From Gammaproteobacteria bacterium (GTDB taxonomy: Bacteria > Pseudomonadota > Gammaproteobacteria > UBA4575): a stretch of 64,000 nucleotides of DNA. The translations under genes were made by a program, and so were the position numbers. Shown here one piece after another: positions 3,010 through 62,787 of this stretch (position 1 is its first letter; each line of letters starts with the position of its first letter). Below the pieces are notes generated by a model. It was not told the DNA's origin. It did no database searches and worked only from the letters and a program-made list of their open reading frames with translations. The DNA is taken from positions 1,218,962-1,282,961 of the forward strand of contig OZ244850.1 in NCBI GenBank assembly GCA_965220895.1. The letters run 5' to 3'.

Positions 3010-5126
3010 TTAAAAGAAGCGATAATCCAGGCTCAGGTTGTACGTGCGTGGTTTGCCAACCAGCCACATATCAGCAAGGTAATACGGTGAAGAGGCATAA
3101 AGCTCATCAAATACATTGTCAACGCGCATTACAATGGACAGGTCCTCATTGAAGTGCCAGCGTGCAGAGGTATCGACGACCGTGTATGAAGGAATCGAGT
3201 TGTCAGGGTTCCAACGCTTACCGACATAGCGGGCATCGGCCAATAGCTGCAGCCTGTCCAGCGGAGCCCAGGCCAATCCCAGGTTGTAGGTTTCTTCAGG
3301 TGCCTCTACATCTCCTCCCCAAAATCCACCGGAAACCGTTCTATCCACATCCACAAAAGCCGCATTGGCTGTCAACTTCAAGGTATTGGTCGGCGCATAT
3401 GTCAGGCTGAGCTCTACCCCTTCGGAAGTCTTCTCCGGAATGACGATCGTAGCCTCACGGTCATCTGGATTATTTTCAACCAAGTCATTCTTGACGATGT
3501 CAAACAAGGCCAGGGTCCAGTGCAAGCGATTATCCAGCAGGCTTTGGTTGATACCGACTTCGATCAGTTCAGTCTTGGTGAAATCCAGTTCCCGGTTCAC
3601 TCTCCTGGTCTGCACGATGCTGTTGTTCGGATGGGTCGCACCGGTAGCGTACTGGGCATAAAGCACCGTAGTATCGCTCAGATCAAAGACCAGTCCCGCC
3701 CGCCCGGTCATCTCGTCCACCTCTTGATCGAAGGGCGGCGGATTGCTGATATCTTCGAAATCCGTTTCAACGTCCTCATGACGTAATCCCAGCACCAGCG
3801 TCAGCGATTTGGTGAGGCCGATCTGGCCCTCGGCAAATACCGCGTATTGGGTGACATCAGAAGTGGTTTCCGTTCGGGCCACAGAAGAAGTGAGGTCGGA
3901 GAACGTCCTGGGGTTGAAATTAAAGGCATCGACGACATCCCTGTCATTTTCCCAATCTTGTCCATTAGGATTTCCGCTGCCAAAATTGACTGCCCGCTTG
4001 AAGGTTAGATCGTTGATTTCAAAGCCTAGCGAGGTTTTCAGCTTCCGTTCGCCATCACTCGCATCAAACACAAAGTTGGTACGAAAGCCGTCGTGCTCGA
4101 CATCATGCGCGAAGATCCCCGGGTTACCGCGCATAACCGTGCCGGCAGCCCGGTCGTAGTCGTACCAATCGAGCGTTCTCCAGAAACGATCACTCTCCAG
4201 GCGGTACAGCTCAGACTGCATGAACAGGCGTTCACTTATATTCCAGTCAGCCTTAATCCGGGCAGCGCTATCTTTGTGGTGGATAGTCCCATCGCTGACG
4301 TCATAGTTTTTTTTCAGTAGTTCAGAGGGGAAATCCCCGTCGACCAGCGGTGTTCCAGAGTATCGCATGGGCTCCTGGTCACCCCAATCGTAGCGCGCTG
4401 TCAGCGAGAAATCCTTGGTGACCTGCCACAGCAATGAAGCAGAAATCATCTCGGTTTCGCTGTCAGCCCTCTCCACCCAGTTATCGGATTGGTTGTTGCT
4501 GTAATCCAGCCGGTAAGCGAGGTTATTGGTGAGCCCGCCGGTCAGGCCGAGGCCGATGAAACGGGTATCGTCTTCACCGGTGGTTATACGCAGATCACCC
4601 CTGGGTTCCTGCTGCGGCCGTTTGGGGATAACATTGTACGCACCGCCAATGCCGCCTTCACCGTACAGTACGGAGGAAGGCCCCTTCAGTACCTCGATAC
4701 GCTCAACGCCCCAGGTATTGAAGGGAAAGCTGATGGTGTTCCATGCAGTATAGTAATTGGTGCCGTCGAACAACTTGGTGACAGTCCCCTGGGTATGAAA
4801 ACCCCTAGCGGCGATGTCTTGGCCACCCTCGGCATGGTGTGCATCATTGGTGAAACCGGCGGAACGGGTGACGGCCTCTACAATGCTCGTATCCATGCGT
4901 TCACGAATTGTATCGCCCTCGATGATTTCCACCGTTGCCGGTGTTTCCTTGATGGTTAGTCCCAGCCGGCTGCCCGTCTCGTTGTCAGTATTAATGGACT
5001 CGCCATAGATCGTAATTTTTTAAGTTGAGCTCTGTCGTTTTCTTGGGCATTTAATCCCGCTGTTGTCACCAGGGTAGCAATGAAGACACCCAGTAATAGA
5101 GAAGATATATATTTTTTCGTTTTCAT
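3010..5126 (-). pseudogene. TonB-dependent receptor split by a 1-nt frameshift in an A6 run (5016-5021)
   Basis: Signal peptide MKTKKYISSLLLGV...NAQE is in one frame; ITIYGE..TGSRLGLTIKETPATVEII, the plug motif ERIEVLKGPSSVLYG and the C-terminal YRFF are in another. One extra A restores a single ORF. Confidence 0.8.
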
Positions 5127-5319: not shown

Positions 5320-5354
5320 GCTATAACACAACTCTATAGCATGATCCTATAAGA

Positions 5355-13957: not shown

Positions 13958-14323
<366 letters not shown>

Positions 14324-14351
14324 CGAAAAATACATTCCTTAGGAGGGAGTT

Positions 14352-15617
14352 GTGGTTGATCAAATCTTTGAATTGCAATACGCGATTGACACCTTTTACT
14401 TTTTGGTGTGTGGCGCATTAGTGATGTGGATGGCTGCCGGCTTTTCCATGCTCGAATCAGGACTTGTACGGAGCAAAAACACGGCTGAGATTCTGACCAA
14501 AAATGTCACGCTGTATTCGATTGCCTGCATCATGTACATGATTTGCGGGTACATGATCATGTATGACGGCACGCTGTTTTTGTCTGGAATTGCAGGGGGC
14601 GAAAGCCTGGTAGATGATGTTTTGGCAGCCTCTGCTGAGAATGGCTTCCACGGTGATTCTGTATATTCGGATGCATCGGACTTCTTTTTCCAGGTCGTAT
14701 TTGTTGCAACATCCATGTCGATCGTATCGGGCGCGGTAGCTGAGCGGATGAAAATGTGGTCATTTCTTCTGTTTGTCGTGGTATTCACAGGGCTCATCTA
14801 CCCGCTGGAAGGCAGTTGGACCTGGAACGGGAAAGATGTGTTCGGCTGGTTCAATCTTGGCGATGCAGGATTCTCCGATTTTGCAGGGTCGGGTATCGTC
14901 CATATGGCAGGCGCAACGGCTGCATTGGCCGGGGTCATGTTGCTCGGAGCACGCCAGGGCAAATATGGGCCAGATGGAAAGGTAGTCGCTATTCCTGGGG
15001 CCAACCTGCCGCTTGCCACGCTGGGGACATTTATTCTGTGGATGGGATGGTTCGGCTTCAACGGCGGGTCAGTGCTGAAGCTCGGAGATGCTGCCAGCGC
15101 CAATGCCGTGGCCATGGTGTTCCTGAACACCAATACCGCGGCTGCAGGCGGGCTGATGGCAGCTTTGGTCACTGCACGTCTCTGGTTTGGCAAGGCGGAC
15201 CTGACCATGGCCCTGAACGGCGCACTGGCCGGCCTGGTGGCTATTACGGCTGAACCTTCTACTCCTTCAGCCCTGATCGCTACTCTGATCGGTGCAGCTG
15301 GCGGGGTCCTTGTCGTGCTGTCGATTGTGCTGCTGGATAAACTCAGAATAGATGACCCGGTAGGGGCAATTTCCGTGCACGGAACTGTTGGACTGTGGGG
15401 GCTGCTGGCCGTGCCGCTTACTAATCCCGACGTGACACTCAGCGGTCAGTTGCTCGGTGCGGCCACGATATTCGTCTGGGTGTTTCTGGCCAGCCTGGTC
15501 ATCTGGAGCGTGATCAAAGCAATCATGGGGCTTCGCATCAGTGAAGAAGAAGAGATGCAGGGGGCCGACATATCCGAGTGTGGCATGGAGGCCTACCCAG
15601 AGTTTGTGATCGAATAG
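14352..15617 (+). CDS. amtB: Ammonium transporter
   Basis: DFAGSGIVH, WFGFNGGS, DDPVGAISVHG. Confidence 0.96.
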   Translation: MVDQIFELQYAIDTFYFLVCGALVMWMAAGFSMLESGLVRSKNTAEILTKNVTLYSIACIMYMICGYMIMYDGTLFLSGIAGGESLVDDVLAASAENGFHGDSVYSDASDFFFQVVFVATSMSIVSGAVAERMKMWSFLLFVVVFTGLIYPLEGSWTWNGKDVFGWFNLGDAGFSDFAGSGIVHMAGATAALAGVMLLGARQGKYGPDGKVVAIPGANLPLATLGTFILWMGWFGFNGGSVLKLGDAASANAVAMVFLNTNTAAAGGLMAALVTARLWFGKADLTMALNGALAGLVAITAEPSTPSALIATLIGAAGGVLVVLSIVLLDKLRIDDPVGAISVHGTVGLWGLLAVPLTNPDVTLSGQLLGAATIFVWVFLASLVIWSVIKAIMGLRISEEEEMQGADISECGMEAYPEFVIE

Positions 15618-50645: not shown

Positions 50646-51086
50646 CTACCATGTGGTGTACTTCAGAAATTTTCCATTCATGGTGATCACGACGCGATCC
50701 CCCTTCGGGTTCTCTTCCTTGTCGATGTCCATGGAGAAGTCGATCGCACTCATGATGCCATCGCCGAACTTCTCACCGATGATTTGCTTGATCGTGTAGG
50801 CGTAGACACCGACGATCTCGTAGAACCGGTACATGACAGGATCCTGGGGAATGATCTTCTCCCAGGTCTTGTTGGGGAATTCCTGCAGTGCAGCACAAAC
50901 CCCTTCATCCAACTCAAGAACCTCACACAGGCTTTTCGCGGCATCCTCCGGCATGCTGTTCATCCCGTAGCAGGCAGAAGCCACCCACACCTCGCCCATG
51001 TCCATCTTGCCGGCGACGGTTTCCCAAGTGAATCCCTTGGCCTTTTTCGCAGCCAGAATCAGGTCAGTCATTTCTTCTTTGGTCAT
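50646..51086 (-). CDS. cynS: Cyanase (cyanate hydratase)
   Basis: DPVMYRFYEI..VY, EKFGDGIMSAIDF, GDRVVITMNGKFL; SD GGAGG before MTKEEM. Confidence 0.95.
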   Translation of the reverse strand: MTKEEMTDLILAAKKAKGFTWETVAGKMDMGEVWVASACYGMNSMPEDAAKSLCEVLELDEGVCAALQEFPNKTWEKIIPQDPVMYRFYEIVGVYAYTIKQIIGEKFGDGIMSAIDFSMDIDKEENPKGDRVVITMNGKFLKYTTW

Positions 51087-51122
51087 TTCAATTCCTCCGT
51101 ATAAAACTGCATGATTAGATTC

Positions 51123-51139
51123 AGCAAAAAACGAGCCAA
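51123..51139 (-). promoter_or_regulatory. sigma54 -24/-12 promoter of cynS
   Basis: Minus strand TTGGCTCGTTTTTTGCT (GG-N10-GC). Confidence 0.8.
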
Positions 51140-51211
51140 CCCGGTGAACCACGAAATTTCATGGATTTGTCACGCCGAGTACGATGGGGCTGGCACACAT
51201 TGTCCGAAAAA

Positions 51212-51249
51212 TGCACTATATTAGTGCAATATTGCACCAAAACTGTACA
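51212..51249. promoter_or_regulatory. Tandem NtrC enhancer sites
   Basis: TGCACTATATTAGTGCA (51212-51228) and TGCACCAAAACTGTACA (51233-51249). Confidence 0.8.
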
Positions 51250-51301
51250 ATCCTCTACTGCGTGCGCGATTCGCACTGGTTGAAGCCCCCGATCTAGGGT
51301 A

Positions 51302-52237
51302 TCAGCCCAGGCTTTTTCCCTGAAGCATATCGGAGGACCAAGCCGAGGCCAGCTCCAGAAAGGCAAGGCATGCCGGGCTTTTGTACCCGCTTTTGTGCCA
51401 GATCATGCTGACGGTGTGATGTGGAAGCTCGGGCACCACGGCGATGGGATAAAGTCCGTCTTGCGTGTTGATGATCGTGCTGGGCAAGACCGTGGCAAGT
51501 GAGCCGAGCTCGACCAGCTCGATGATCACGGTCAGCGAATTGGTCTCGATCACGTTGCGGGGTTCGATGCCGCAATCATGGCAGTAGCGATCGATATGGT
51601 GTCGAAGGGCGAAGTCCGTATTGAGCTGGACCAAGGATTCCTTGCCAAAGTCCTGGGCACTGATCCGCTTTCTTTTCTGGGCATGCCTCGGATGCGCTTC
51701 GCCGACGGCGAGATAAAGGGCCTCCTCGAACAGGGTGAATGTCTCGGTATGGCCGGAATTTTCCTCGGAATGGTGCGGTTTGCTGAACGCGATCCCGATA
51801 TCGATCCGGGCTTCGGAGATGGCCGGTTCTATATCGTCCTGGGGCATGTCCAGCGTGCTCAGGGTGATGCCCGGGTACAACTGGTTGTAGCGGGACAGCA
51901 AGGAACAGGTCAGATAGTCGGTGATCGGGGTCCAGCCCAGTCGCAGGGAGCCGCGGCTGAGGTCCTGTACATCCTGAATTGCCCGCGTACCAATGTTCAG
52001 TTCTCCCCATGCGCGCCGCGCATGCCGGAGAAAAATTTTTCCGGCATCAGTCAGCTGTACAGTACGGCCTGAGCGGTCCAGCAAAGGAGATTGGAGGTAT
52101 TCTTCTAGTTGCTTGATTTGCTGGGATAAGGTTGGCTGGGAGACGTGCAGGGCTTCGGCCGCTCGCGTATAACTGCCATATTCTGATATCGCAATCAGGT
52201 ATTGAAGGGAGCGCGGAAAAATGTCTCGCCTATCCAT
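51302..52237 (-). CDS. cynR: CynR-like LysR-family regulator
   Basis: HTH SYTRAAEALHVSQPTLSQQIKQLE, DVQDLSRGSLRL, DIGIAF, DFALRHHIDRY; located between cynS and the scn operon. Confidence 0.85.
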   Translation of the reverse strand: MDRRDIFPRSLQYLIAISEYGSYTRAAEALHVSQPTLSQQIKQLEEYLQSPLLDRSGRTVQLTDAGKIFLRHARRAWGELNIGTRAIQDVQDLSRGSLRLGWTPITDYLTCSLLSRYNQLYPGITLSTLDMPQDDIEPAISEARIDIGIAFSKPHHSEENSGHTETFTLFEEALYLAVGEAHPRHAQKRKRISAQDFGKESLVQLNTDFALRHHIDRYCHDCGIEPRNVIETNSLTVIIELVELGSLATVLPSTIINTQDGLYPIAVVPELPHHTVSMIWHKSGYKSPACLAFLELASAWSSDMLQGKSLG

Positions 52238-52300
52238 AGTTAAACCCTATGAGTTTGATAAATATAAAGTCTTGGATTAATAACATAACTCCTTTAGACT
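52233..52300 (+). promoter_or_regulatory. LysR operator plus sigma70 promoter of the scn operon
   Basis: CATAG-N7-CTATG (52235-52251) overlapping the cynR start codon; TTGGAT-N17-TAGACT (52272-52300). Confidence 0.8.
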
Positions 52301-52430
52301 TGTCATTATCTCATATTACGACCCTATAAAATAAGTATATAAGAAAATACTGAAGTACCCCGAAACAACCAGCATGCAAGGTAGCGTGTTTGACATCCAG
52401 ATATGCAGAAAATAAGAGGAGTTCAAAGTC

Positions 52431-52862
52431 ATGCCATCTGATACCAGACAAAAAGTTTTGCGGCACATTGACATTGTTGGTCAATTGCAACCAGCTCTGC
52501 ATCAGCCGCAGCATGCCCCCCTTCCTACGGAGATCGATAACGCCCACTACAGGGCTTACATGAGGACTTCACACGATGTCGGTGGAGAGCCTGATGTGAC
52601 GATCCAGTGGCACGAAAAAGAAGAGGAACAGTGGGAATTGAACACCTACGTGACGTGCGAGTGTCTAGCATGGCGTGGCGTCTGGAATGCCGAGGAAAGA
52701 CGCCGCCGGCAGAATGTTGACCTGGGACAGACCCAGTACCTGGGCCTGCCTTATTACGGGCGTTGGCTGCTATCTGCTGCAAGGATCATGGTCGATAAAC
52801 AGCACATTACTCTCACGGAACTAATGGATAAGATTGATGAGGTTAAAAAGCGCTATGAGTAG
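52431..52862 (+). CDS. scnB: Thiocyanate hydrolase beta subunit
   Basis: QPALHQ..HAP.PTEI, HDVGGE, CECLAWRGVW.AEERRR.QN.D.GQT.YLG.PYYGRW. Confidence 0.93.
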   Translation: MPSDTRQKVLRHIDIVGQLQPALHQPQHAPLPTEIDNAHYRAYMRTSHDVGGEPDVTIQWHEKEEEQWELNTYVTCECLAWRGVWNAEERRRRQNVDLGQTQYLGLPYYGRWLLSAARIMVDKQHITLTELMDKIDEVKKRYE

Positions 52863-53208
52863 AGGTCATCATGCTGAGAAAGCCACTGGGAAAGGTGATC
52901 CACAATGTTTCCGGGGCGAGGCGACACCACCAAAATTCAAAGTCGGTGATCGAGTGCGGATCCGGGATTTGCCGGACATCTTCTACACCCGGTGCCAGGT
53001 GTATACACGGGGTGCAGAGGGAGTGGTGGCCGTTGTCACGCATGAAAGCCCCGCCCCTGAGGATGAGGCTTGGGACAATGTCGACAAGCCCGAGTGGTTC
53101 TACATTGTACGCTTCAAGCAAAAGGAACTCTGGCCCGAATATCCTGACGTTTATGAAAATGACACATTACAGACAGAATTTTCTGAGCGTTGGCTGGAGC
53201 TCGCATGA
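52855..53208 (+). CDS. scnA: Thiocyanate hydrolase alpha subunit
   Basis: HHA..ATG.GDPQCF, GDRVRIRDLPD.FYTR, ESPAPEDEA, LWPEY, NDTL.TE; ATG overlaps the scnB end. Confidence 0.93.
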   Translation: MSRGHHAEKATGKGDPQCFRGEATPPKFKVGDRVRIRDLPDIFYTRCQVYTRGAEGVVAVVTHESPAPEDEAWDNVDKPEWFYIVRFKQKELWPEYPDVYENDTLQTEFSERWLELA

Positions 53209-53256
53209 AACCGGCTGATTGGATCGACAAAGAGAATTGTATAGAGGGGAATAATC

Positions 53257-53949
53257 ATGGCAGATAAACATAAGCCTGCGCCTATGGTGGATGAAGTTAG
53301 CGACTTCGAGGTTCTGGAAGTCGCGGTTCGTGAGTTGGCCATTGAAAAGGGCCTTTTCAGTGCTGAGGACCATCGGCGTTTTGCAGAATTTGCGCACAGC
53401 ATAGGTCCACTGCCGGCCGCGCGGCTCGTGGCGAAGTCCTGGCTGGACCCTGAATTCAAGAAGCTGGCGCTGGAGGACGGGTTCACTGCGAGCAAGGAAG
53501 TGGGGATTGACTGGCTGAACCCAACGGGATTCGGGACTCCGAGTGACTACTGTGATTTGCGCGTGCTTGAGAACACTCCATCCGTGCATCATGTAGTGGT
53601 ATGCACGTTGTGTTCGTGTTACCCGAGGCCGATTTTGGGCCATTCCCCCGAGTGGTACAGGACTCCCAATTATCGTCGCAGACTGGTTCGCTGGCCACGT
53701 CAGGTGTTGTCAGAGTTTGGTCTGCAGATTCCAGCAGATGTCGAGGTGAGAGTTGAGGATTCCAACCAGAAGTGCCGTTTCATGGTCTTGCCAATGCGAC
53801 CTGAAGGTACCGAGGACTGGAGTGAAGACCAGCTCACTGAAATTGTGACGCGTGACTGCATGCTGGGAGTAGCCCTGCCACATCCGGAGCGCAAGGCCGA
53901 TGACAAACGGCCCGTGCACAAGGCAGCCAACCCGGTTCATGGGCACTAA
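53257..53949 (+). CDS. scnC: Thiocyanate hydrolase gamma subunit (Co-binding)
   Basis: KPAPMV.EV.DFE.LE.AVRELAIEKG, Co-type VCTLCSCYPRP, PEWYR.PNYRRRLVRWPR. Confidence 0.95.
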   Translation: MADKHKPAPMVDEVSDFEVLEVAVRELAIEKGLFSAEDHRRFAEFAHSIGPLPAARLVAKSWLDPEFKKLALEDGFTASKEVGIDWLNPTGFGTPSDYCDLRVLENTPSVHHVVVCTLCSCYPRPILGHSPEWYRTPNYRRRLVRWPRQVLSEFGLQIPADVEVRVEDSNQKCRFMVLPMRPEGTEDWSEDQLTEIVTRDCMLGVALPHPERKADDKRPVHKAANPVHGH

Positions 53950-53958
53950 AGTGACAGC

Positions 53959-54348
53959 GTGATGGACAGCCAGGAAAAAAATGATGGGACTGTCTCGGTG
54001 AGCCAGGAGCCGGAATTTTCTTCGGTTTCGCTGCTGGAGAAGGTCCGCAAGCAGGGAAGGGTCTGGGAGGATTTGGCCAAGAAGTACGGTGTGGATAATC
54101 CTGATCCCCCCTGGAAGATCAATCTGGACTCAACCTGCGAGGCACTTTCCGCTGAGCAGTGCGCACTTCCTGTATTGGAGCGCAGGACTGAGGAGGATGT
54201 GCTCTCCGAGAGCCTGTATCAAGATGTTCCTTATCCGGAGCGTCAGCTGCTGGCTCTTGCCCATTCGATGATTGAGCGTGGATTGATTGATGAAGATGAA
54301 CTGGCACTTCGCATGAAGTTTGTCAGCAAGCGTCTCAACGGTGCCTGA
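53959..54348 (+). CDS. Probable SCNase activator/metallochaperone (P15K-like)
   Basis: About 15 kDa, directly after scnC; C-terminus (PYPERQLLALAHSMIERGLIDEDEL) resembles the NHase-beta helical region. Confidence 0.72.
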   Translation: MMDSQEKNDGTVSVSQEPEFSSVSLLEKVRKQGRVWEDLAKKYGVDNPDPPWKINLDSTCEALSAEQCALPVLERRTEEDVLSESLYQDVPYPERQLLALAHSMIERGLIDEDELALRMKFVSKRLNGA

Positions 54349-54422
54349 TGATATGCATGCGGTCAGGCAGAGTACAGGGTGAGTGCATGACAGATAGACG
54401 GTGATACTAAGGACGATAGCCG

Positions 54423-54785
54423 ATGGCAAATATATTCATGAAGTCTTCATGGGGGAGCGATGACCCGACACGGGCGGCAATGGTTTTCGGGCATGCGAAT
54501 GCCCTGGCAAGTGCAGGCCATGAGGTACGGATATTCCTACTCGGTGAGGCCGTTTGCCTGGCACGCCCTGTGGTTCGTGAGAACATGGTTCCACTGGGTT
54601 GGCCGTCTGTCGCCGAACAGTGGGATGAAGCCATTGGGAATGGTGTACGCATTGAATGCTGTGGCGCATGTTCCAGAGCTAGGGGCGTGAGTGAAGACGA
54701 CATGGCGAAAGCTGGAGCCCAGCCTGGTAATCCCACCACCTTCGTGGAAAGTGTTGAATGGTCCGACAAGATTATCGCGGAATGA
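54423..54785 (+). CDS. DsrE/DsrF-family protein
   Basis: V.IFLLGEAV, CCGACSRARG, WSDKII. Confidence 0.85.
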   Translation: MANIFMKSSWGSDDPTRAAMVFGHANALASAGHEVRIFLLGEAVCLARPVVRENMVPLGWPSVAEQWDEAIGNGVRIECCGACSRARGVSEDDMAKAGAQPGNPTTFVESVEWSDKIIAE

Positions 54786-54913
54786 AAGATGACAGTGGCC
54801 AGAACAGATCAGATCCGACCCTTGCCTAATCTTTTGTTCCGTGTATGCGTGTAAGACAGATGAAGCGGCAAGCTACAGAAGATGAAGACCGACCGTAGAG
54901 GCAGAGAACATAT

Positions 54914-55744
54914 ATGGAAAGACGCACCGGCGTACGCATCGATATTGGCGACCTTACCCATCGCTATTCCGCGAAAGCCCCGATTACCTTTGAGCAAGTT
55001 AATATCACGGCGGAACCCGGCGAAGCATTGGTTGTCATTGGTCGGTCCGGTTGCGGGAAATCAACGCTTCTGCATATCTTGGCCGGCCTGCTGGAAAAAA
55101 CCAGCGGCGTTGTACAACTGGACGGAAAAGATGTTACGGAGCCCTCCTCACATTGGATAATGATGTTTCAAGCACCGCATCTTTTTCCCTGGATGACGGT
55201 AGAACAGAACGTTGGCACAGGCCTGCGCTTTGCGCGTTGGTCGGAGGAGAAAATGAAAAAACGGGTGGCCGAGGTGATTAATCTCGTACACCTTGATGAA
55301 TTTGCGCAGAACAACACGCAAGACCTCTCCGGTGGTCAGCAACAGCGTGTTGCGCTTGCTCGCTCTCTGGTGATGGAACCTGATCTATTGCTACTGGATG
55401 AGCCATTTTCGGCACTGGATGCCTTCACGCGAGCAACACTGCAAAAAGATGTAAGAGCGATCTCGAAACAGTTGGGATTTAACCTGGTGATGGTCACCCA
55501 CGATATCGATGAGGCAGTCATTATGGCCGATCGTGCATTGGTCATGGCGGGTTCGCCCGGCAAGATTGTCCATGACTTTAAGGTGGATCTGGATGATCCG
55601 CGAGAAAGGCAGGATCCCGAGGTTCAGGCAATGCGTGCTAAACTGATGGAGATATTTCATCAGGCGGCAGGTGTGCCTGTTGACAGTTCCAATGAGGAAG
55701 GAGACGACGCCGGTCAACCGGATGTTGAACTGGCAGGCAACTAG
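54914..55744 (+). CDS. ABC transporter ATP-binding subunit (NrtD/SsuB type)
   Basis: GRSGCGKS, LSGGQQQR, LLDEPFSALD, VTHD. Confidence 0.93.
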   Translation: MERRTGVRIDIGDLTHRYSAKAPITFEQVNITAEPGEALVVIGRSGCGKSTLLHILAGLLEKTSGVVQLDGKDVTEPSSHWIMMFQAPHLFPWMTVEQNVGTGLRFARWSEEKMKKRVAEVINLVHLDEFAQNNTQDLSGGQQQRVALARSLVMEPDLLLLDEPFSALDAFTRATLQKDVRAISKQLGFNLVMVTHDIDEAVIMADRALVMAGSPGKIVHDFKVDLDDPRERQDPEVQAMRAKLMEIFHQAAGVPVDSSNEEGDDAGQPDVELAGN

Positions 55745-55808
55745 AATAATATCTGAAAGTGCACTTCAGACCTATTAACTACGAGAGTAACGATTGAGGA
55801 ATTCCGAC

Positions 55809-57101
55809 ATGAAGAAAATTTACGACAAACATGGCGACGGGATACAGACCGATGATCCCAGGCTCGCCATAGAGTACGACCCGCTGTTCAAGGGGGTGCT
55901 AGGTACCGGTATCAACCGGCGTGAATTGCTGCAGGTGGGAGGCCTGGCTGCTCTGGGAGGTGGAGCCGGTGCCTTGCCGATGCCTACCTTCGCTAAGAAA
56001 AAGTGGGACCCGGTTATCAAGATTGGGTACATCCCCATCACGGATGCAGCCGCACTCCTTATCGCCCATGATCTGGGCTATTTCAAGGATGAAGGCATTG
56101 ATTCTGTGAAGCCGACACTGATTCGTGGCTGGTCGCCACTGGTGGAAGCCTTTGCAGCGCATCGCTTCAACCTGACGCATATGTTGATACCGATTCCGGT
56201 ATGGATGCGCTACAACAACAAGTACCCGATCAAGATCACAGCTTGGGACCACACTAACGGGTCTGCTGTGCTGGTGGGTAAGAAAAGCGGTATCAATGAG
56301 CCGAAGGACTTTGGTGGCAAGCAGTTTGCTGTACCGTACTGGTACTCGATCCACAACATTGTTTCGCAAAGGATCATGAAAGCGGCCGGCATCAAGCCGG
56401 TCATCAGACCCCAATCTGCGAAGCTGGCGGATGACGAGTGCAACTTCCTCGTCTTGGCGCCGCCCTCCATGCCGCCTGCGCTGGCAGCGGGAACCATTGA
56501 CGGCTACTGTGTGGCTGAACCTTTCAACGCTTTGGGTGAGCTCAAGGCGGGTGGAAAGGTACTGCGCTTCACCGGGGATGCCTGGAAAGGACACCCCTGC
56601 TGCGTCGTTGTGATGCATGAAGAAGACGCCATGGACCCGGATCGTGCTGCTTGGGCCCAGGGGGTACACAACGCAGTGGTCAGGGCGCAGATCACACTCG
56701 CTGAGAACCGGGAGTCAATGTCTGAGCGGCTTTCACGTGACGGCAAGGGTTACCTGCCGGTACCGAAAGAAGTCGTAAAACGGGCAATGATGTTCTACGA
56801 CCCCGCTTATTACAAGAATCCGCCTGCCATCAAGCATCCGGAATGGGGACAGAACAGGATTGACTTCCAGGCATGGCCGTATCGCTCGGCCACGGAACTC
56901 GTGGTCAGTGACCTCAAGGAAACTGTGGTCACAGGTGATGCGCGATTCCTGGAGACGCTCACTCCACAGCATGTTTCCGACGATCTGGTCAATTATGACT
57001 ATGTGAAGAATGCGCTGGAAGCGAATCCGAAATGGAGAAATGATGCGAGCGTGCCGCAAGAAGGCGATCCGTACATTCGATCCGAGGTGTTCGTACTTTG
57101 A
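55809..57101 (+). CDS. NrtA/CmpA-like anion-binding protein, Tat-exported
   Basis: NRRELLQ twin-arginine signal, IGYIPITDAAALL, FAVPYWYSIHN, VAEPFN, HPCC. Confidence 0.88.
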   Translation: MKKIYDKHGDGIQTDDPRLAIEYDPLFKGVLGTGINRRELLQVGGLAALGGGAGALPMPTFAKKKWDPVIKIGYIPITDAAALLIAHDLGYFKDEGIDSVKPTLIRGWSPLVEAFAAHRFNLTHMLIPIPVWMRYNNKYPIKITAWDHTNGSAVLVGKKSGINEPKDFGGKQFAVPYWYSIHNIVSQRIMKAAGIKPVIRPQSAKLADDECNFLVLAPPSMPPALAAGTIDGYCVAEPFNALGELKAGGKVLRFTGDAWKGHPCCVVVMHEEDAMDPDRAAWAQGVHNAVVRAQITLAENRESMSERLSRDGKGYLPVPKEVVKRAMMFYDPAYYKNPPAIKHPEWGQNRIDFQAWPYRSATELVVSDLKETVVTGDARFLETLTPQHVSDDLVNYDYVKNALEANPKWRNDASVPQEGDPYIRSEVFVL

Positions 57102-57952
57102 GTAACGGCAAAGCGGATGTGGTGGATGTCGATGCGGGCGCTTCCGCATCGTCGCTGAAGGCTGCGCAAAACGCGAAAAAAGCCAAGTCGCTGGGCAAGA
57201 GCCTGTTCAACTGGGCTGCTGGCCTGGCGATCCTTTTCGTGCTTTGGTGGTTTGGCGGGTATCTCATTGAGATCAATCCCGATACCACGAACTTCAGTGA
57301 CTTTGGGCCGATCCCGACGTTTAAGGCATTTCCGGAACTGTTTGCAATTGGTAAGATCCAGGCAGCGGTCATAACCAGTGGCTATCGTCTGGGGGCAGGA
57401 CTGCTCATTGCCATTGTCGTTGGGATACCCATTGGAATCCTGCTTGGACGTAGCACGGTCTTTCGTGAGCTCAGCAATTCGCCATTTCAGTTGATCCGTA
57501 TGATCAGCCCGCTTTCCTGGGAGCCCATTGCCGTGATCGTGTTTGCCACCTGGAACGGGGCAATCGTATTCCTGATCGCGGTCGCCGCGGTCTGGCCCGT
57601 CGTCTTTGCTACGGCAGCCGGTCTGGCGAAGGTGGACCCTGCCTGGTTCAAGGTGGCCCGTAACCTGGGTGCCAAGCCCTGGCACATGGTGACGGAAATC
57701 ATCCTGCCAGCCATCATGTTCGATATCCTGACGGGCGTACGGCTCGCTCTGGGTGTTGGATGGATTGTGCTGGTACCGGCAGAGTTTCTCGGGGTGACCT
57801 CGGGACTTGGCTACTCCATTGCGGATGCCAGGGAGACACTCTCGTATGACCATTTGACGGCGATGGTGCTGACCATCGGGATCATGGGCTACATACTTGA
57901 CAGTTCCTGTGCGATGTTGATCAAGCGCTACAGCTGGCACCACGGAAGATAA
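57098..57952 (+). CDS. ABC transporter permease (NrtB/SsuC type)
   Basis: RMISPLSW, EAA-like ARNLGA, WIVLVPAE.LG..SGLGY. Confidence 0.9.
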   Translation: MSNGKADVVDVDAGASASSLKAAQNAKKAKSLGKSLFNWAAGLAILFVLWWFGGYLIEINPDTTNFSDFGPIPTFKAFPELFAIGKIQAAVITSGYRLGAGLLIAIVVGIPIGILLGRSTVFRELSNSPFQLIRMISPLSWEPIAVIVFATWNGAIVFLIAVAAVWPVVFATAAGLAKVDPAWFKVARNLGAKPWHMVTEIILPAIMFDILTGVRLALGVGWIVLVPAEFLGVTSGLGYSIADARETLSYDHLTAMVLTIGIMGYILDSSCAMLIKRYSWHHGR

Positions 57953-58014
57953 GCAAATACCAAACGAACACTAATTAATTTGCTGATTTAACTAAATCGA
58001 GGAAAAAGATAACC

Positions 58015-58212
58015 ATGCAAAATCAGATAGCAAGCAGTGTAAAACTGCATGATGGAACGATTTCCAAGGCAACACGGCGTCCGTTGTTACAGATTGCCGC
58101 TGCCTTTTTGTTGGGCGCCGTAATCTTGTACGGTGTAGGCTTTGCACATTCGGCCGCGGTGCACAATGCGGCCCATGATGTTCGCCATACCCAAGCCTTC
58201 CCTTGCCACTAG
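58015..58212 (+). CDS. cbtB: Second CbtB-family cobalt-binding membrane peptide
   Basis: TM helix plus VGFA....HNAAHDVRHTQAFPCH. Confidence 0.88.
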   Translation: MQNQIASSVKLHDGTISKATRRPLLQIAAAFLLGAVILYGVGFAHSAAVHNAAHDVRHTQAFPCH

Positions 58213-59045
58213 GCATTAGGGGAAATATCACAGGAAACTGCTGAGAATTCCTCTCGATGGCTTGGCCCACGGTCAGGATGACCTCGGGCCAAGCCTGTGT
58301 TTTTTAGCTGGCTTGTAAATACAGGTCGGCATCCTTGCGCTATAAATCCTGATCGGACGAAGGTCCGTCTTACTGTCAGAAAATCCACCTGTGCTGAGGC
58401 AGGGTGGGGGGTAGCTTGGTATGACGAAAACAGTACGGGCATCCTGACAGCCATCGGCACAAGCTGGTATGGCAGCTCTCCATGAGTGTGCCCACCAAGG
58501 TCGTGAACCGCTTGCTGAGTGCCCTGCCCTTAAGCAACGCACCTTTTGCATTCTGTAAACCTCAGCATGCCTGCAGTGGATGCACAGGTAATGCCCCCCG
58601 GCCATCGTGCATTAATCAGGTATTTGCAGGGAAGCAGCTTGGTCAGGGAATTGCTCAAGAAACTCAAGGGCCTTGGGTCCCTAATCGTGGGGACAGTGGG
58701 GACAGCGTCCATGGGTCACTGAACAAACCAGGGTACGGTGGTTGCAATGAATTTCGGGAACGTAACATCTGCCGCCAGTTGGGATCAGCATCCAAAGAAG
58801 TATTAAGGGCATAACCGCAATGGTGAACGCCAGCCCTGAAGCCAACCACGCGAGATCAACGGATTAGGTATAACGCGTAGTGCGTGAAGGTCTGATGAGG
58901 GTTCCTGGCATTTGTGAATAGTATGCGCATATTGTCGACAATTCACCTGTACATGGCCTGTTTGGTGGCACTGCGCTGTTATTTAGGGATGAGTTTCACT
59001 CAATGATTTACGCAAGGAATAGCAACTGGCGATAGACCTTCACAC

Positions 59046-59075
59046 AAAAAAAGAGGGGTGCAATTTGCACCCCTC
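59046..59075 (-). terminator. Rho-independent terminator of the porin gene
   Basis: Minus strand GAGGGGTGC-AAATT-GCACCCCTC followed by TTTTTTT. Confidence 0.85.
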
Positions 59076-59122
59076 GGTTTGGTGTAAGTTTGCCTTCCAG
59101 TGAAGGCTACGTACTACGGTAG

Positions 59123-60721
59123 TTATTTGAAGCGATATTGGAGCAGTGTCCAAAACTTCTTGGTGTCCGTAGAGAACCCGTCCTCACTTTCGAAGTCCGT
59201 GTACTTGATTGCGAACAGGAATTTACCCTTAAAGGGTTTACCCCACAGTATGCCCCATTCATCTCCATAATCAGAAATGCGGTTGCCTCCTGACATGTAG
59301 GATCGGTCCGTGCTGTAGTCGTGATAATTGATGACGAGCTTGTTCTTGCCAATTTTGTTGCCCATAAGACCCAAAATTGTCAGGGTCACGCTGGTGTCCT
59401 CGATGCCACCAAGAGGGGTTGCCGAGCCACCAGGAGCGGCTACAAACTTATCAGCCCAGCCATTGAAGGCATGCACTGTAGCCAAAGGGGTTTGTATTGC
59501 ATTGTTGCCGTTACTCTCCAAGACCTCGTAACCGACTCTTATCTGGTAGGTAGGCTCGCCAATGGGCATGAAGCCTAGGTTATCTACCCGTGTGCCGCCA
59601 AACCTGATCCCGAACTCAATATTGTAATAATCATTGTCGTCCAGTTTCTGCATGGTCTGCACATTGACACCTGCATCGTCAGTTGGGTCCTGGTTCGCAT
59701 ACTCTAGCTCACTCTGGATATCCAACGTGTCACTGAATTCGTGCCTGCCGGTAAAGCGTACACCGTAGGTCTCCGAATCAAAAATTACGGGACCAATGAA
59801 AGATGGTGCCATGCCTGTACCTTCAGGGAACGGGGTACGGGGATTATCATCAAAATCCAGCAGATAGCCGTAGGCGACCAGTTTGCCATTGAATTGCGGG
59901 AGCTTGTAGGAAATATTGATGAGGTGGGAGTCGTCCATTTTCCATTCATCAAAAATTGAATCTGGACCAAATAGTCGCTTTACCTTGTCAAGATAGGTAT
60001 AAGAGATCCCAAGTTTTCCGAGCGTCTTATCTACCCTGAATGCGTCCATAGCAACGTTGTTTCCACGCCAGATCACATCACCAACCCACCGGTGGTTGTC
60101 ATAAATGACAGTTTGCCGTCCCAATTTAAACGACAAGGGACCATCGCAAGGACCCGGTGCACTAGGACAGCCGCCCGTTGGTGCACGCCATCCGATATAG
60201 GCTTCATTGATTTCTTCAAAATCATTGTCCGGGATAATGCCATAACCCTCAATATAACGGTTCATCGCTGGTAGGTTACCCCGTATAGGCGCTGGTATTC
60301 CTCCTATTCCGCCTACAGCACCGACGTTGGGAGGCACAGTAAAATCACCATCAAGATTTAGTGCCCTGTCCGAGTTCAGGACGTCGTTCACCTCCCCTTC
60401 GATCCGGGCATAAAAACCATGGAGGCGGCCTGTGGTATAGCCCAGCGCATTGCGCAAGACAATCATGTCGGCCTTGTCGGTGTCAGAAAGAGGGTGTCCA
60501 CTCGCAAAATCATCCTCCACGCTCTCATAACGTATGCGTGACCAGAAATCGAAACGGCCATTGGTTAATGCTTCACCAAGGTTTGTGTGGTCCGGCGTCA
60601 TTTTGTGATGGGGGTTATGATGGGTGTTGGGGACATCCGGCAAGCCCACCGCTCCGACACCCTGCGCAAGCACTAGAATGGCTGCGGCCATGAGACATGG
60701 CAGAGGTTTAAAGTTGACCAT
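59123..60721 (-). CDS. Alginate-export (AlgE-like) family outer-membrane porin
   Basis: Signal peptide, RIRYESV, KLGRQ.V.YDNHRWVG.V.WR, QTPLATVHAFNGWADKF, DTKKFW..LQYRF; SD GGAGGAG. Confidence 0.85.
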   Translation of the reverse strand: MVNFKPLPCLMAAAILVLAQGVGAVGLPDVPNTHHNPHHKMTPDHTNLGEALTNGRFDFWSRIRYESVEDDFASGHPLSDTDKADMIVLRNALGYTTGRLHGFYARIEGEVNDVLNSDRALNLDGDFTVPPNVGAVGGIGGIPAPIRGNLPAMNRYIEGYGIIPDNDFEEINEAYIGWRAPTGGCPSAPGPCDGPLSFKLGRQTVIYDNHRWVGDVIWRGNNVAMDAFRVDKTLGKLGISYTYLDKVKRLFGPDSIFDEWKMDDSHLINISYKLPQFNGKLVAYGYLLDFDDNPRTPFPEGTGMAPSFIGPVIFDSETYGVRFTGRHEFSDTLDIQSELEYANQDPTDDAGVNVQTMQKLDDNDYYNIEFGIRFGGTRVDNLGFMPIGEPTYQIRVGYEVLESNGNNAIQTPLATVHAFNGWADKFVAAPGGSATPLGGIEDTSVTLTILGLMGNKIGKNKLVINYHDYSTDRSYMSGGNRISDYGDEWGILWGKPFKGKFLFAIKYTDFESEDGFSTDTKKFWTLLQYRFK

Positions 60722-60869
60722 GGTTTTACTCCTCCCTTGCAAGGGTTTTGGCCAGATTGTCCTTGAGTAACCCGGCCATAACAGTTTCAGGACCCTGAAT
60801 TATAAGTTTTAAGCCTACTCCCTTCACATAAGCTTAATAATCTATCTATAGTAAATAATTGCTTTCCCG

Positions 60870-60913
60870 TCCAAGACTTTATCTTTATTGAAACCATAGA
60901 TTTTGACTATGGA
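60870..60913 (-). promoter_or_regulatory. Second copy of the LysR operator/-35 element
   Basis: Minus strand TCCATAGTCAAAATCTATGGTTTCAATAAAGATAAAGTCTTGGA; 36/44 identical by hand to 52233-52276. Confidence 0.85.
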
Positions 60914-61055
60914 CCAATTAATAGTTATTACATTATAAGGGTGCAGGCAATAAATACAATTGCCGGCGTGCCTTCGCTGGCTATAAAGATCAAAACCTTA
61001 GGCCTGCAATCCGGGTATTCCGGCAATGGGTTGAGGGCATTTTTAAGGAGCTTTT

Positions 61056-62345
61056 TCAGTAGCCGGCAGGGTCTGGCGCCTTGAGCCACCTTGGATCGGC
61101 TGCAAGCGGTCCCGAGAGGGTGTGCAGGAATGCTTCAAGCTGCTTAGCCTCTTTGCGTCTCAAGGACAGTGCTTTGGCCTCGTTGTGTCCCACCATGGCT
61201 GCGGGAGCACGGTCATAATGATCGATTACTTCCTGGAGCGTTGCCAGCTGTCCTGCATGCATGTAGGGGCCGGTCTTTGCGGTATTCCTGAGCGACGGCG
61301 TCTTGTGGGCACCCACCAGGTTGTCGCCGGTTTGGATAAAGCGCAGCTCAGTACACTCCCTAGGGTTGATGTCACTGAAATCGCCCCGGCAGTTGAACGG
61401 GTCGTCCAGTACGGCCTGCACTGCAATGATCCGGCCTCTGCTTGGAAGCGAGCCCGGGCTGGACAGTAACGCTGTGTTGTGGAACTCGTGATTGGTGAGT
61501 AGCGGACCATTATGGCAGTTGATGCACTGTGCCTTGCCGATGAACAGCCTCAGGCCGGCACGTTCATCCTTGCTCAGGATTTCGGCGGGTTCACGGCTTC
61601 CTGCCACCAGCGCTTCCACGTAGTGATCAAATCGCGCTGCCCCCGGCATTAACAAGCGCTCATAGGCAGCGATGGCCTTGCCGATATTCGCGAACACCCT
61701 TGTTACCGCTTTTTGATTATCCGGGGACATGGACTGCCAGTTCTCATCCAGATTCTTGTCGCTTACGGGACCTGCAGCCGCTGGAAAACGCGAAGGATCG
61801 GAAAAATCATCCAGGGGTCCAAACAAGGCCTCGTACTGTATACGGTAGTGCTCGTCTTGTGCGACAAGACGCACGAGCTGCATGCGCGAACTCCCGTGCT
61901 CCAGCGGGTTTTCAAGCGGAGACAGGGCCTGGGACCAAAGGCTGTCCTTGCGCCCGTCCCAGAACAGCCAGGGGCTGTAGGCCGTACCGACGATGCTCAT
62001 GGTATTTCGCTTGCCGGTGTCGAGCCCTTCGGCAACTTCCAGGCCGTCCGTAAAAAAGTGTTCGGGCCGGTGACAGCTTGCGCAGGAGATTTGTCCATTG
62101 GCGCTCAGGCGTTTGTCGAAAAATAGACGATGGCCGAATTCTGCAGCCTGTAGATTGTCGGCTACGGCATTGCTCGTGCCCGTTGGCAGGGGCGGAAGGT
62201 TGGCGATCCAGAGCGAGCGAATCAGGTTGATCTCCGAGTCCGTCCAGGCATCGCTGTTCCTGTCAGGCCAGGCATACCACCACCCGGCACCGGCCAGGAT
62301 GACCAGGATGGTTGCTGTGAGCGTGCCCCGGAGCGCTTCCGACAT
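61056..62345 (-). CDS. Di-heme cytochrome c peroxidase/MauG-family protein
   Basis: LFFDKRLS, CASCH, FWDGR, CINCH, KTPSLRN, PYMHAG; N-terminal anchor. Confidence 0.88.
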   Translation of the reverse strand: MSEALRGTLTATILVILAGAGWWYAWPDRNSDAWTDSEINLIRSLWIANLPPLPTGTSNAVADNLQAAEFGHRLFFDKRLSANGQISCASCHRPEHFFTDGLEVAEGLDTGKRNTMSIVGTAYSPWLFWDGRKDSLWSQALSPLENPLEHGSSRMQLVRLVAQDEHYRIQYEALFGPLDDFSDPSRFPAAAGPVSDKNLDENWQSMSPDNQKAVTRVFANIGKAIAAYERLLMPGAARFDHYVEALVAGSREPAEILSKDERAGLRLFIGKAQCINCHNGPLLTNHEFHNTALLSSPGSLPSRGRIIAVQAVLDDPFNCRGDFSDINPRECTELRFIQTGDNLVGAHKTPSLRNTAKTGPYMHAGQLATLQEVIDHYDRAPAAMVGHNEAKALSLRRKEAKQLEAFLHTLSGPLAADPRWLKAPDPAGY

Positions 62346-62352
62346 GCCGCGC

Positions 62353-62787
62353 CTACAGGTCCAGGTCAAAGGTCACGCGGTCTGAAGTTTCCCCTTGCTG
62401 GATCAGGAGCATGACCTGCCACCGACCGCCCATGTGGAACTTCATGCCCTCGAGCAGGTAGTCCCCTCTGCCCAGGTTTTCCGTGACCCTTGGCCGTGTG
62501 GGTAACCCATGGTCATGGTCCGGCATCCCTCCCTCGATCTGGACCGTGGCATCGGTGACGGGCTTGCCCGAGCGGTCCTGGATGTGCAGCGTCCATGCAT
62601 GCATGGTGTTAATCGCGATGGGATCGAGATGGCTGGTGAAGCGAACCTCGAAGTGTTGCTCATCCGAGAGCCTGGAGGCCTCGGTGTCGGGCTGCTCTGA
62701 ACTGCCTTGTGTCCATGCAAACGCTGCATACACGCAAACTGCGAGAAATGTTGCTTTCATGATCCTCATGGCTTCAGTCCTCACCAT
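62353..62787 (-). CDS. YtkA/FixH-like periplasmic protein
   Basis: GGMPDHDHG and G.Y....KFHMGG.W motifs. Confidence 0.78.
   Translation of the reverse strand: MVRTEAMRIMKATFLAVCVYAAFAWTQGSSEQPDTEASRLSDEQHFEVRFTSHLDPIAINTMHAWTLHIQDRSGKPVTDATVQIEGGMPDHDHGLPTRPRVTENLGRGDYLLEGMKFHMGGRWQVMLLIQQGETSDRVTFDLDL

Follow-up and report, generated by a model that had tools for sequence, protein, structure and literature searches.

In Escherichia coli, the LysR-type regulator CynR activates cynTSX in the presence of cyanate and represses itself, and the divergent cynR-cynTSX operator carries three ATAA-n7-TTAT repeats centred at -66, -44 and -34 inside a 60-bp footprint, according to the passage of PMC5002191 that summarises the work of Lamblin and Fuchs (1993/1994). 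NaSCN was also reported to induce cynT in E. coli, the cause being left open by the authors in the section concerned (PMC12096828). Thiocyanate hydrolase (scn) clusters were described from Thiobacillus thioparus and Thioalkalivibrio thiocyanodenitrificans, and in the part of PMC5328954 that lists them a hypothetical protein, a NitT/TauT ATP-binding cassette (ABC) transporter and a DsrE-like protein belong to the cluster, with cyanase and cobalt-uptake genes nearby. Here we analysed a window of 64,000 nucleotides (nt) from contig OZ244850.1 of a Gammaproteobacteria bacterium, in which a 44-bp block stands both in the divergent control region of a cynR-type gene and an scn operon and upstream of an outer-membrane porin gene. 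Judged by comparative sequence analysis, this block is probably a CynR operator, which would define a thiocyanate/cyanate regulon including a dedicated porin.

The two 44-mers (Table 1) are identical at 36 of 44 positions (82%). The original prediction had reached this number by hand, and its coordinates, strands and count were all confirmed when the positions were recounted by script. In a repeat search the two copies formed the longest inverted pair in 51000-62000, the next best pair being 34 nt at 71%. The best 44-mer identity between the scn and the porin intergenic regions was 36, and 60 dinucleotide-preserving shuffles gave 23-28. With a degenerate 44-mer consensus and up to 3 mismatches, only these two sites were matched in the window, and none of 100 shuffles reached two. 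The CATAG-N7-CTATG dyad that had been predicted in each copy is present there without mismatch (52235-52251 and 60895-60911) and nowhere else in the window. Using a matrix derived from related sites, the copies scored 71.6 and 68.2 bits and the rest of the window at most 8 bits, the region upstream of the cbtB-cbtA pair (47395-46502) included. The 44-bp repeat is confirmed as real and non-random.

The two copies lie about 8.6 kb apart, and each is oriented towards the gene downstream of it. Both contain an inverted repeat (IR1) with T-N11-A, the LysR box, followed 22 bp further on by a second, degenerate element, which adjoins a weak -35 hexamer, TTGGA(T/C), or runs into it. At copy 1 the CAT at 52235-52237, inside the dyad, is the start codon of cynR on the opposite strand. 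Both blocks end in a hexamer that could serve as the -35 claimed for them, TTGGAT at scn and TTGGAC at the porin gene, both weak; weak hexamers would be expected for activator-dependent promoters. If transcription starts at the predicted positions, about 52307 (scn) and 60838 (porin), IR1 would be centred at about -64 and -65, respectively, and the LysR promoter layout proposed earlier would agree in its dyad, position and spacing with the published E. coli CynR operator. Sigma-54-type spacing (GG...GC) was read by eye and rejected at both sites, the scn site having no GC at the proper distance. A convincing cynR promoter was not found by eye in 52278-52345.

The protein encoded beside copy 1, which had been called CynR-like, scored 339.3 bits against the NCBIfam CynR model NF008416 (cut-off 277). 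Its best solved relative is the effector domain of E. coli CynR (1e-41, the next at 1e-20), and it is 44% identical to E. coli CynR, the helix-turn-helix and recognition helix being near-identical. The family of the regulator is directly established, and the earlier naming was right.

Relatives of the porin were scanned with one genome per species, and 12 loci were obtained from metagenome-assembled genomes (MAGs) of Gammaproteobacteria of 1.8-2.2 Mb. Eight of these loci keep the order mauG-like gene, porin gene, gap, ABC importer, dsrE, scnCAB and divergent cynR with cynS, at identities of 63-91% for the porin and 94-99% for ScnC. Alignments were anchored on the neighbouring genes and not on the motif. 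The 44-mer and the -10 region were kept and the flanking intergenic DNA had diverged in 12 porin-upstream regions (the window plus 11 loci, the extra copy in L004 being excluded) and in 10 scn/cynR regions. The predicted scn promoter block was invariant or nearly so across 10 aligned relatives, and the predicted porin promoter block was kept in 12. The genome-wide motif scan proposed earlier was run on the genomes of five relatives (1.8-2.2 Mb); the pattern, allowing up to 3 mismatches, occurred exactly twice in each, at the scn and the porin sites, and the reversed-pattern control gave 0.

Locus L004 (7910-11599, genome G002) holds a second porin copy, 90% identical to that of the window, directly behind a DDE transposase gene. 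This extra copy is without the operator, its homology beginning only about 35 nt before the ATG, and the syntenic porin copy of the same genome (72% identity) retains it. When loci L001-L011 were compared with the window, ScnB, ScnC, DsrE and the binding protein were 94-99% identical and the mauG-like, cyanase and porin proteins only 63-86%, the putative ScnA being least conserved (41-82%). Very strong constraint on the scn core, or else a recent exchange of it, would explain this high identity.

Across 55 genomes of the order, 62 motif matches were found in 29 genomes and none in the other 26, and control matches were 0 in all 55. The 29 motif-positive genomes are exactly those with scnC over its cut-off. 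CynR exceeded its cut-off in 27 of the 55, all within the 29, and the two exceptions (G019 and G025) have scnC at a contig end. Porin orthologues (at least 56% identity) were present in 28 of the 29 scnC-positive genomes, G025 having a pseudogene, and scnC-negative genomes held just paralogues of 34-37% identity, in 5 of 26. The decayed porin of G025 (L090, 4418-6100) shows many stop codons in all matching frames, and its operator is kept with 2 mismatches. These sequences, their conservation, their exclusivity and their co-occurrence with the genes are direct observations. At the level of sequence the co-regulated pair put forward originally is upheld, both sites being orthologously conserved, the only ones in the relatives' genomes, and strictly co-occurring with scnC, CynR and the porin.

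Twelve regions from more distant genomes, with CynR identities of 60-76% and porin identities of 51-63%, were mapped for genes and sites, and here too one site marks the scn promoter and another lies ahead of the porin gene. Extra sites precede the cbtB-cbtA cobalt transporter genes in G009, G010 and G011 (in G006 with 4 mismatches), the cyanase gene in G006, a DUF1348 gene in G010 and, in G014, a TonB-dependent receptor gene followed by one for a PepSY protein. After reduction of 110 site occurrences, 62 distinct contexts remained: 27 before scnB, 27 before the porin gene, 1 at the decayed porin of G025, 4 before cbtB(A), and 1 each before cynS, the DUF1348 gene and the TonB-dependent receptor gene. 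Every one of the 62 sites is directed at the downstream gene and retains ATAG..A....CTAT. The distance to the gene start is 12-310 nt in 61 (129-310 nt except for the DUF1348 and TonB-receptor sites), and the nearest porin match to the G025 site is 943 nt away. Wide occurrence of the motif before unrelated genes had been named as a refutation; the contexts are nearly all scnB or porin, with none in the 26 scnC-negative genomes.

Of the 19 loci holding cynR, 18 have the start codon of that gene within a site, and in the remaining one, G011, codon and site are 27 nt apart; the site beside cynR faces cbtBA instead of scn in both G010 and G011. Thiocyanate hydrolase is a cobalt enzyme, and a cobalt transporter in the same regulon therefore makes functional sense. 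The receptor of G014 is related to the TonB-dependent receptor encoded at 3016-5112 (-) in the window, about 220 nt 5' of which a weak dyad-only match (12 bits) was seen at 5332-5354. In locus L079 of G010 (14081-15474) the scn operon extends further, into genes for TusA and a sulfide:quinone reductase (SQR)-like flavoprotein, which are absent from the window cluster.

The porin was modelled with AlphaFold from 48 sequences as a large beta-barrel (pLDDT 72, pTM 0.76). Its top fold matches were AlgE (PDB 3rbh, 4afk) and the 18-strand OprD/Occ channels, at E about 1e-15, with TM scores of 0.5-0.56 by query length and 0.6-0.76 by target length and identities of 10-14%. AlgE entries ranked 2, 3 and 6-9 among these matches, and the Occ channels scored equally well; the fold class is therefore common and not specific to AlgE. 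The predicted fold was directly obtained in this way, and a profile of the 48 homologues searched against solved structures returned none by sequence, only a spurious match at E 0.48. A precomputed match to Pfam PF13372 (Alginate_exp) is on record for many homologues of 45-63% identity. The earlier description as an AlgE-like porin thus stands for the 18-strand AlgE/Occ-like fold and for the family of the homologues, and not for the protein's own PF13372 score, which is sub-threshold. The N-terminus of the mature porin is His-rich, and one His only of that segment is conserved in the family.

Among 80 metagenomic loci of distant porin relatives (28-33% identity), 18 have a gene for a NitT/TauT binding protein, a permease or a cyanase on the same strand within 4.5 kb, and the same neighbour types occur in 15 of the 59 loci having at least 4 kb of flank. 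In one such locus the genes run in order from a binding protein through an ntrB-type permease, an ntrCD-type ATPase and a cyanase to the porin. In L168, L141, L169, L094, L107, L117, L123 and L125, porins (28-33%) lie directly beside nitrate/cyanate-type ABC importers, three with cyanase. Two closer metagenomic relatives of the porin (55% and 50% identity) have the motif upstream. The neighbourhoods of the distant relatives give independent support for a putative small-anion role of the porin.

The reading that we favour is that a CynR tetramer would occupy the dyad and the second element. By analogy with E. coli CynR, binding of a pseudohalide anion, thiocyanate, cyanate or both, may change the DNA bend and recruit RNA polymerase, and the operon of thiocyanate hydrolase, ABC importer and CbtB would be switched on together with the porin, while CynR would hold down its own production at the scn site. 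The porin would serve as the outer-membrane entry for the small anion, which the ABC importer would then carry across the inner membrane. CynR binding, activation, the inducer and the channel substrate are what we infer here, and the best-supported picture is a module for sensing, for import across the outer and the inner membrane, for hydrolysis and for the supply of the cofactor, probably served by two promoters in this genome and by up to four elsewhere. We also suggest, tentatively and at less than even chances, that a large, uncharacterised branch of the alginate-export porin superfamily consists of dedicated outer-membrane channels for small pseudohalide and N-oxyanions, namely thiocyanate, cyanate and nitrate, working with NrtABC/CynABD-type importers, of which one has here come under a thiocyanate-sensing CynR paralogue.

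RNA contigs were taken from four metatranscriptome runs of two studies. These runs hold relatives 90-97% alike, and the contigs show presence in the libraries only, without starts, strands or levels; stretches without RNA cover (the porin body, 58520-59320 and 60926-62500) are uninformative for this reason. Contigs cover scnB through the permease gene to 58231-58303 as well as the porin 5' region, and one (52086-52282) spans the operator and the cynR 5' end. A block, CTATAAAATAAGTATATAAG, at 52323-52342 (+), in the scn leader and upstream of cynR, is nearly invariant in 10 relatives. Three RNA contigs start exactly at its left edge, which raises the question of a cynR promoter or a leader element.

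Several points weigh against the favoured reading. Since the pattern used to find the distant sites came from the window itself, part of their conservation at the positions it specifies is built in by the search. The consensus promoter scan listed neither of the two predicted promoters, whose hexamers are weak, below threshold and read by eye. In 3 of the 4 runs RNA contigs have their left ends at 52324, 52325 and 52326, some 17 nt downstream of where we predict the scn start, and one porin 5' contig extends to 60856, some 18 nt upstream of the start predicted for the porin gene; if such ends were real starts, the dyads would not be at -64/-65. Strain variants at 52318-52323 and 60857-60860 adjoin these contig ends and could break contigs there, and the ends are therefore weak hints on starts. 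With regard to function, thiocyanate hydrolase yields carbonyl sulfide (COS) and ammonia, not cyanate, which bears on the natural inducer, and the porin itself scored 11.7 bits (E 0.11) against PF13372, below the gathering threshold of 25.2. Finally, a near-consensus block, TTGTAT-N16-TATAAT (60959-60932, -), could be a second, constitutive porin promoter reading through the operator, and with such a promoter active, CynR on the operator downstream would be a roadblock, giving repression there and not activation.

This last point leads to an alternative in which the operator is real and the porin gene is driven by the upstream block, CynR repressing it until an inducer arrives or constitutively. 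The block does contain a perfect TATAAT 19 nt upstream of the operator that is conserved in the nearer relatives (L001-L009), and the RNA contig reaching 60856 extends upstream of the activator-dependent start we predict, though contig ends cannot define starts. The TTGTAT-N16-TATAAT block is, however, not conserved in L010-L012, where the operator and a TATAGA/TATATA hexamer are kept, and the orientation and the spacing to the weak -35 are the same as at the scn promoter and in all 62 contexts, which is the layout of an activator; we regard repression of the porin gene as improbable. It appears quite improbable too that the motif is bound by another regulator encoded elsewhere in the genome. 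G019 and G025 are motif-positive without a CynR match, but scnC stands at the contig end in both, 27 of the 29 genomes with the motif, and 0 of the 26 without it, have a CynR above the cut-off, the start codon of cynR falls within a site at 18 of 19 loci, and dyad and spacing agree with the E. coli CynR operator.

An origin of the similarity as the remnant of a promoter duplication without present function would account for the common orientation and -35-like end of the copies. We consider it extremely improbable, since both copies are kept where the flanks have diverged beyond alignment and the porins are just 51-63% identical, and since copies are lost together with the genes. What the porin carries is a separate matter, and here a regulon as proposed whose porin serves cobalt supply, the release of COS or sulfur species, or general diffusion is unlikely but deserves serious weight. 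The same operator before cbtBA and a TonB-dependent receptor gene in other genomes speaks for it, as does the His-rich N-terminus of the mature porin. Against this, the segment keeps a single His across the family, the distant relatives adjoin nitrate/cyanate-type ABC importers and cyanase and not metal transporters, and the nearest solved folds are substrate channels for anionic or carboxylate compounds. A CynR-controlled porin for a small anion is the reading retained below.

Table 1. Operator copies, predicted promoters, genes and hairpins of the scn and porin loci, in window coordinates
Feature	Position	Strand	Remarks
Cyanase, cynS	50646..51152	-	ORF (open reading frame) as listed; family match starts at residue 23
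CynR-type LysR regulator, 311 aa	51302..52237	-	NF008416
Operator copy 1	52233..52276	+	cynR/scnB divergent control region
Copy 1 IR1, ATAG-N7-CTAT	52236-52250, centre 52243	+	
Copy 1 second element, ATAA-N7-GTCT	52258-52272	+	
Predicted scn promoter	52272..52300	+	TTGGAT 52272-52277, 17 nt, TAGACT 52295-52300; read by eye
scnB, thiocyanate hydrolase beta subunit	52431..52862	+	NHase_beta_N
Putative scnA	52871..53218	+	No family match; position between scnB and scnC, and synteny
scnC, thiocyanate hydrolase gamma subunit	53257..53949	+	TIGR03887, 393.4 bits vs cut-off 291.45; has VVCTLCSCY
Small NHase-beta-like protein (activator-like accessory gene)	53959..54348	+	
DsrE-family protein	54423..54785	+	
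NitT/TauT-type ABC importer	54914..57952	+	ATPase 54914-55744, NMT1_2 binding protein 55794-57101, permease 57098-57952
CbtB-like small membrane protein, last scn operon gene	58015..58212	+	
Hairpin and T-run, likely scn operon terminator	58260..58306	+	RNA contigs stop at 58231-58303
Terminator-like hairpin 3' of porin gene	59053..59075	-	
Outer-membrane 18-strand beta-barrel porin, alginate-export superfamily, 532 aa	59123..60721	-	Signal-peptide-like N-terminus
Predicted porin promoter	60845..60874	-	TTGGAC 60874-60869, 18 nt, TATAGA 60850-60845; read by eye
Operator copy 2	60870..60913	-	Upstream of porin gene
Copy 2 IR1, CCATAG-N7-CTATGG; ATAG-N7-CTAT	60896-60910, centre 60903	-	

The remaining features of the locus are collected in Table 1. 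The VVCTLCSCY segment of ScnC is what we take to be the Cys-cluster metal site. The porin gene is followed by a hairpin (59075-59053) and is therefore monocistronic. The CbtB-like gene at the end of the scn operon has no CbtA partner and is retained in all near relatives, and the canonical cbtB-cbtA pair, which has no operator, lies 5 kb off on the minus strand behind a metallophosphoesterase gene. Between the convergent terminators, about 750 nt (58307-59052) hold only short ORFs without family matches, and a gap of similar size is seen in the relatives. No alginate genes were found in this region of the window or in the relatives' loci, the neighbours of the porin being mauG-like and scn genes.

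Open-access papers and preprints yielded no link between thiocyanate hydrolase and a LysR/CynR regulator, nor between cyanate and porins of the alginate-export type. Such an element is textbook material in itself, and the novelty appears to lie in its recruitment by the thiocyanate hydrolase genes, in the dedicated porin and in the sharp bounds of the regulon. The scn clusters have so far been described as gene lists, and the finding adds an operator of defined sequence, a candidate sensor whose close relative has a solved structure, and a small regulon with sharp limits. It also offers a first clue to the function of the alginate-export-like porins, a widespread group. It bears on the way in which uncultured sulfur oxidisers associated with sponges scavenge nitrogen and sulfur, as well as on biosensing and bioremediation of thiocyanate. 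If the tentative view of a pseudohalide-channel branch were true, the locus would be a self-contained module to sense, import and degrade, including cobalt supply, and a natural thiocyanate biosensor.

The window shares with the scn clusters of T. thioparus and T. thiocyanodenitrificans a small protein gene, a NitT/TauT ABC transporter and a DsrE-like gene behind the scn genes, and a cyanase and cobalt-uptake genes close by, and the TusA and SQR-like genes seen in the distant relative G010 are found in T. thioparus as well, both according to the cluster descriptions in PMC5328954. The cluster descriptions name no regulator or outer-membrane channel, and the word "porin" has 0 occurrences in that paper, whereas the present locus has a CynR-type regulator, its probable operator and a putatively co-regulated porin. 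The cynABD-cynS clusters, for example that of Pseudomonas pseudoalcaligenes (PMC6627978), likewise join an NrtABC/CynABD-type importer and cyanase in one module; different here are the thiocyanate hydrolase, the LysR-type control with a defined operator and the inclusion of an outer-membrane porin. With AlgE and OprD/Occ the porin shares a predicted 18-strand monomeric barrel, and many of its homologues carry PF13372, but it differs from AlgE in its 10-14% identity, in having no alginate genes nearby and in a context of small-anion import and breakdown.

The closest described control system is that of E. coli CynR, which belongs to the same regulator family and has a divergent regulator gene overlapping the control region. 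As far as the operator is set out in PMC5002191, both systems have a 15-bp inverted repeat, ATAR-n7-YTAT, which here would fall near -65 as in E. coli if the predicted starts are right, and 22 bp beyond it a second element by a weak -35. The -10 hexamers are similar (TAGTCT in E. coli, TAGACT at scn). Measured from the dyad centre, the -35 and the -10 as predicted here are each displaced by 1 bp relative to E. coli, and the overall layout differs by about 1-2 bp. The half-sites are ATAG/CTAT here and ATAA/TTAT in E. coli, one base being changed in each. In E. coli the target genes encode carbonic anhydrase, cyanase and CynX, whereas here they encode thiocyanate hydrolase and an ABC importer, and cyanase lies downstream of cynR without a site of its own. 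Unlike the E. coli operator, the one described here would serve, in this genome and its relatives, two to four promoters, including those of the porin and the cobalt-transporter genes.

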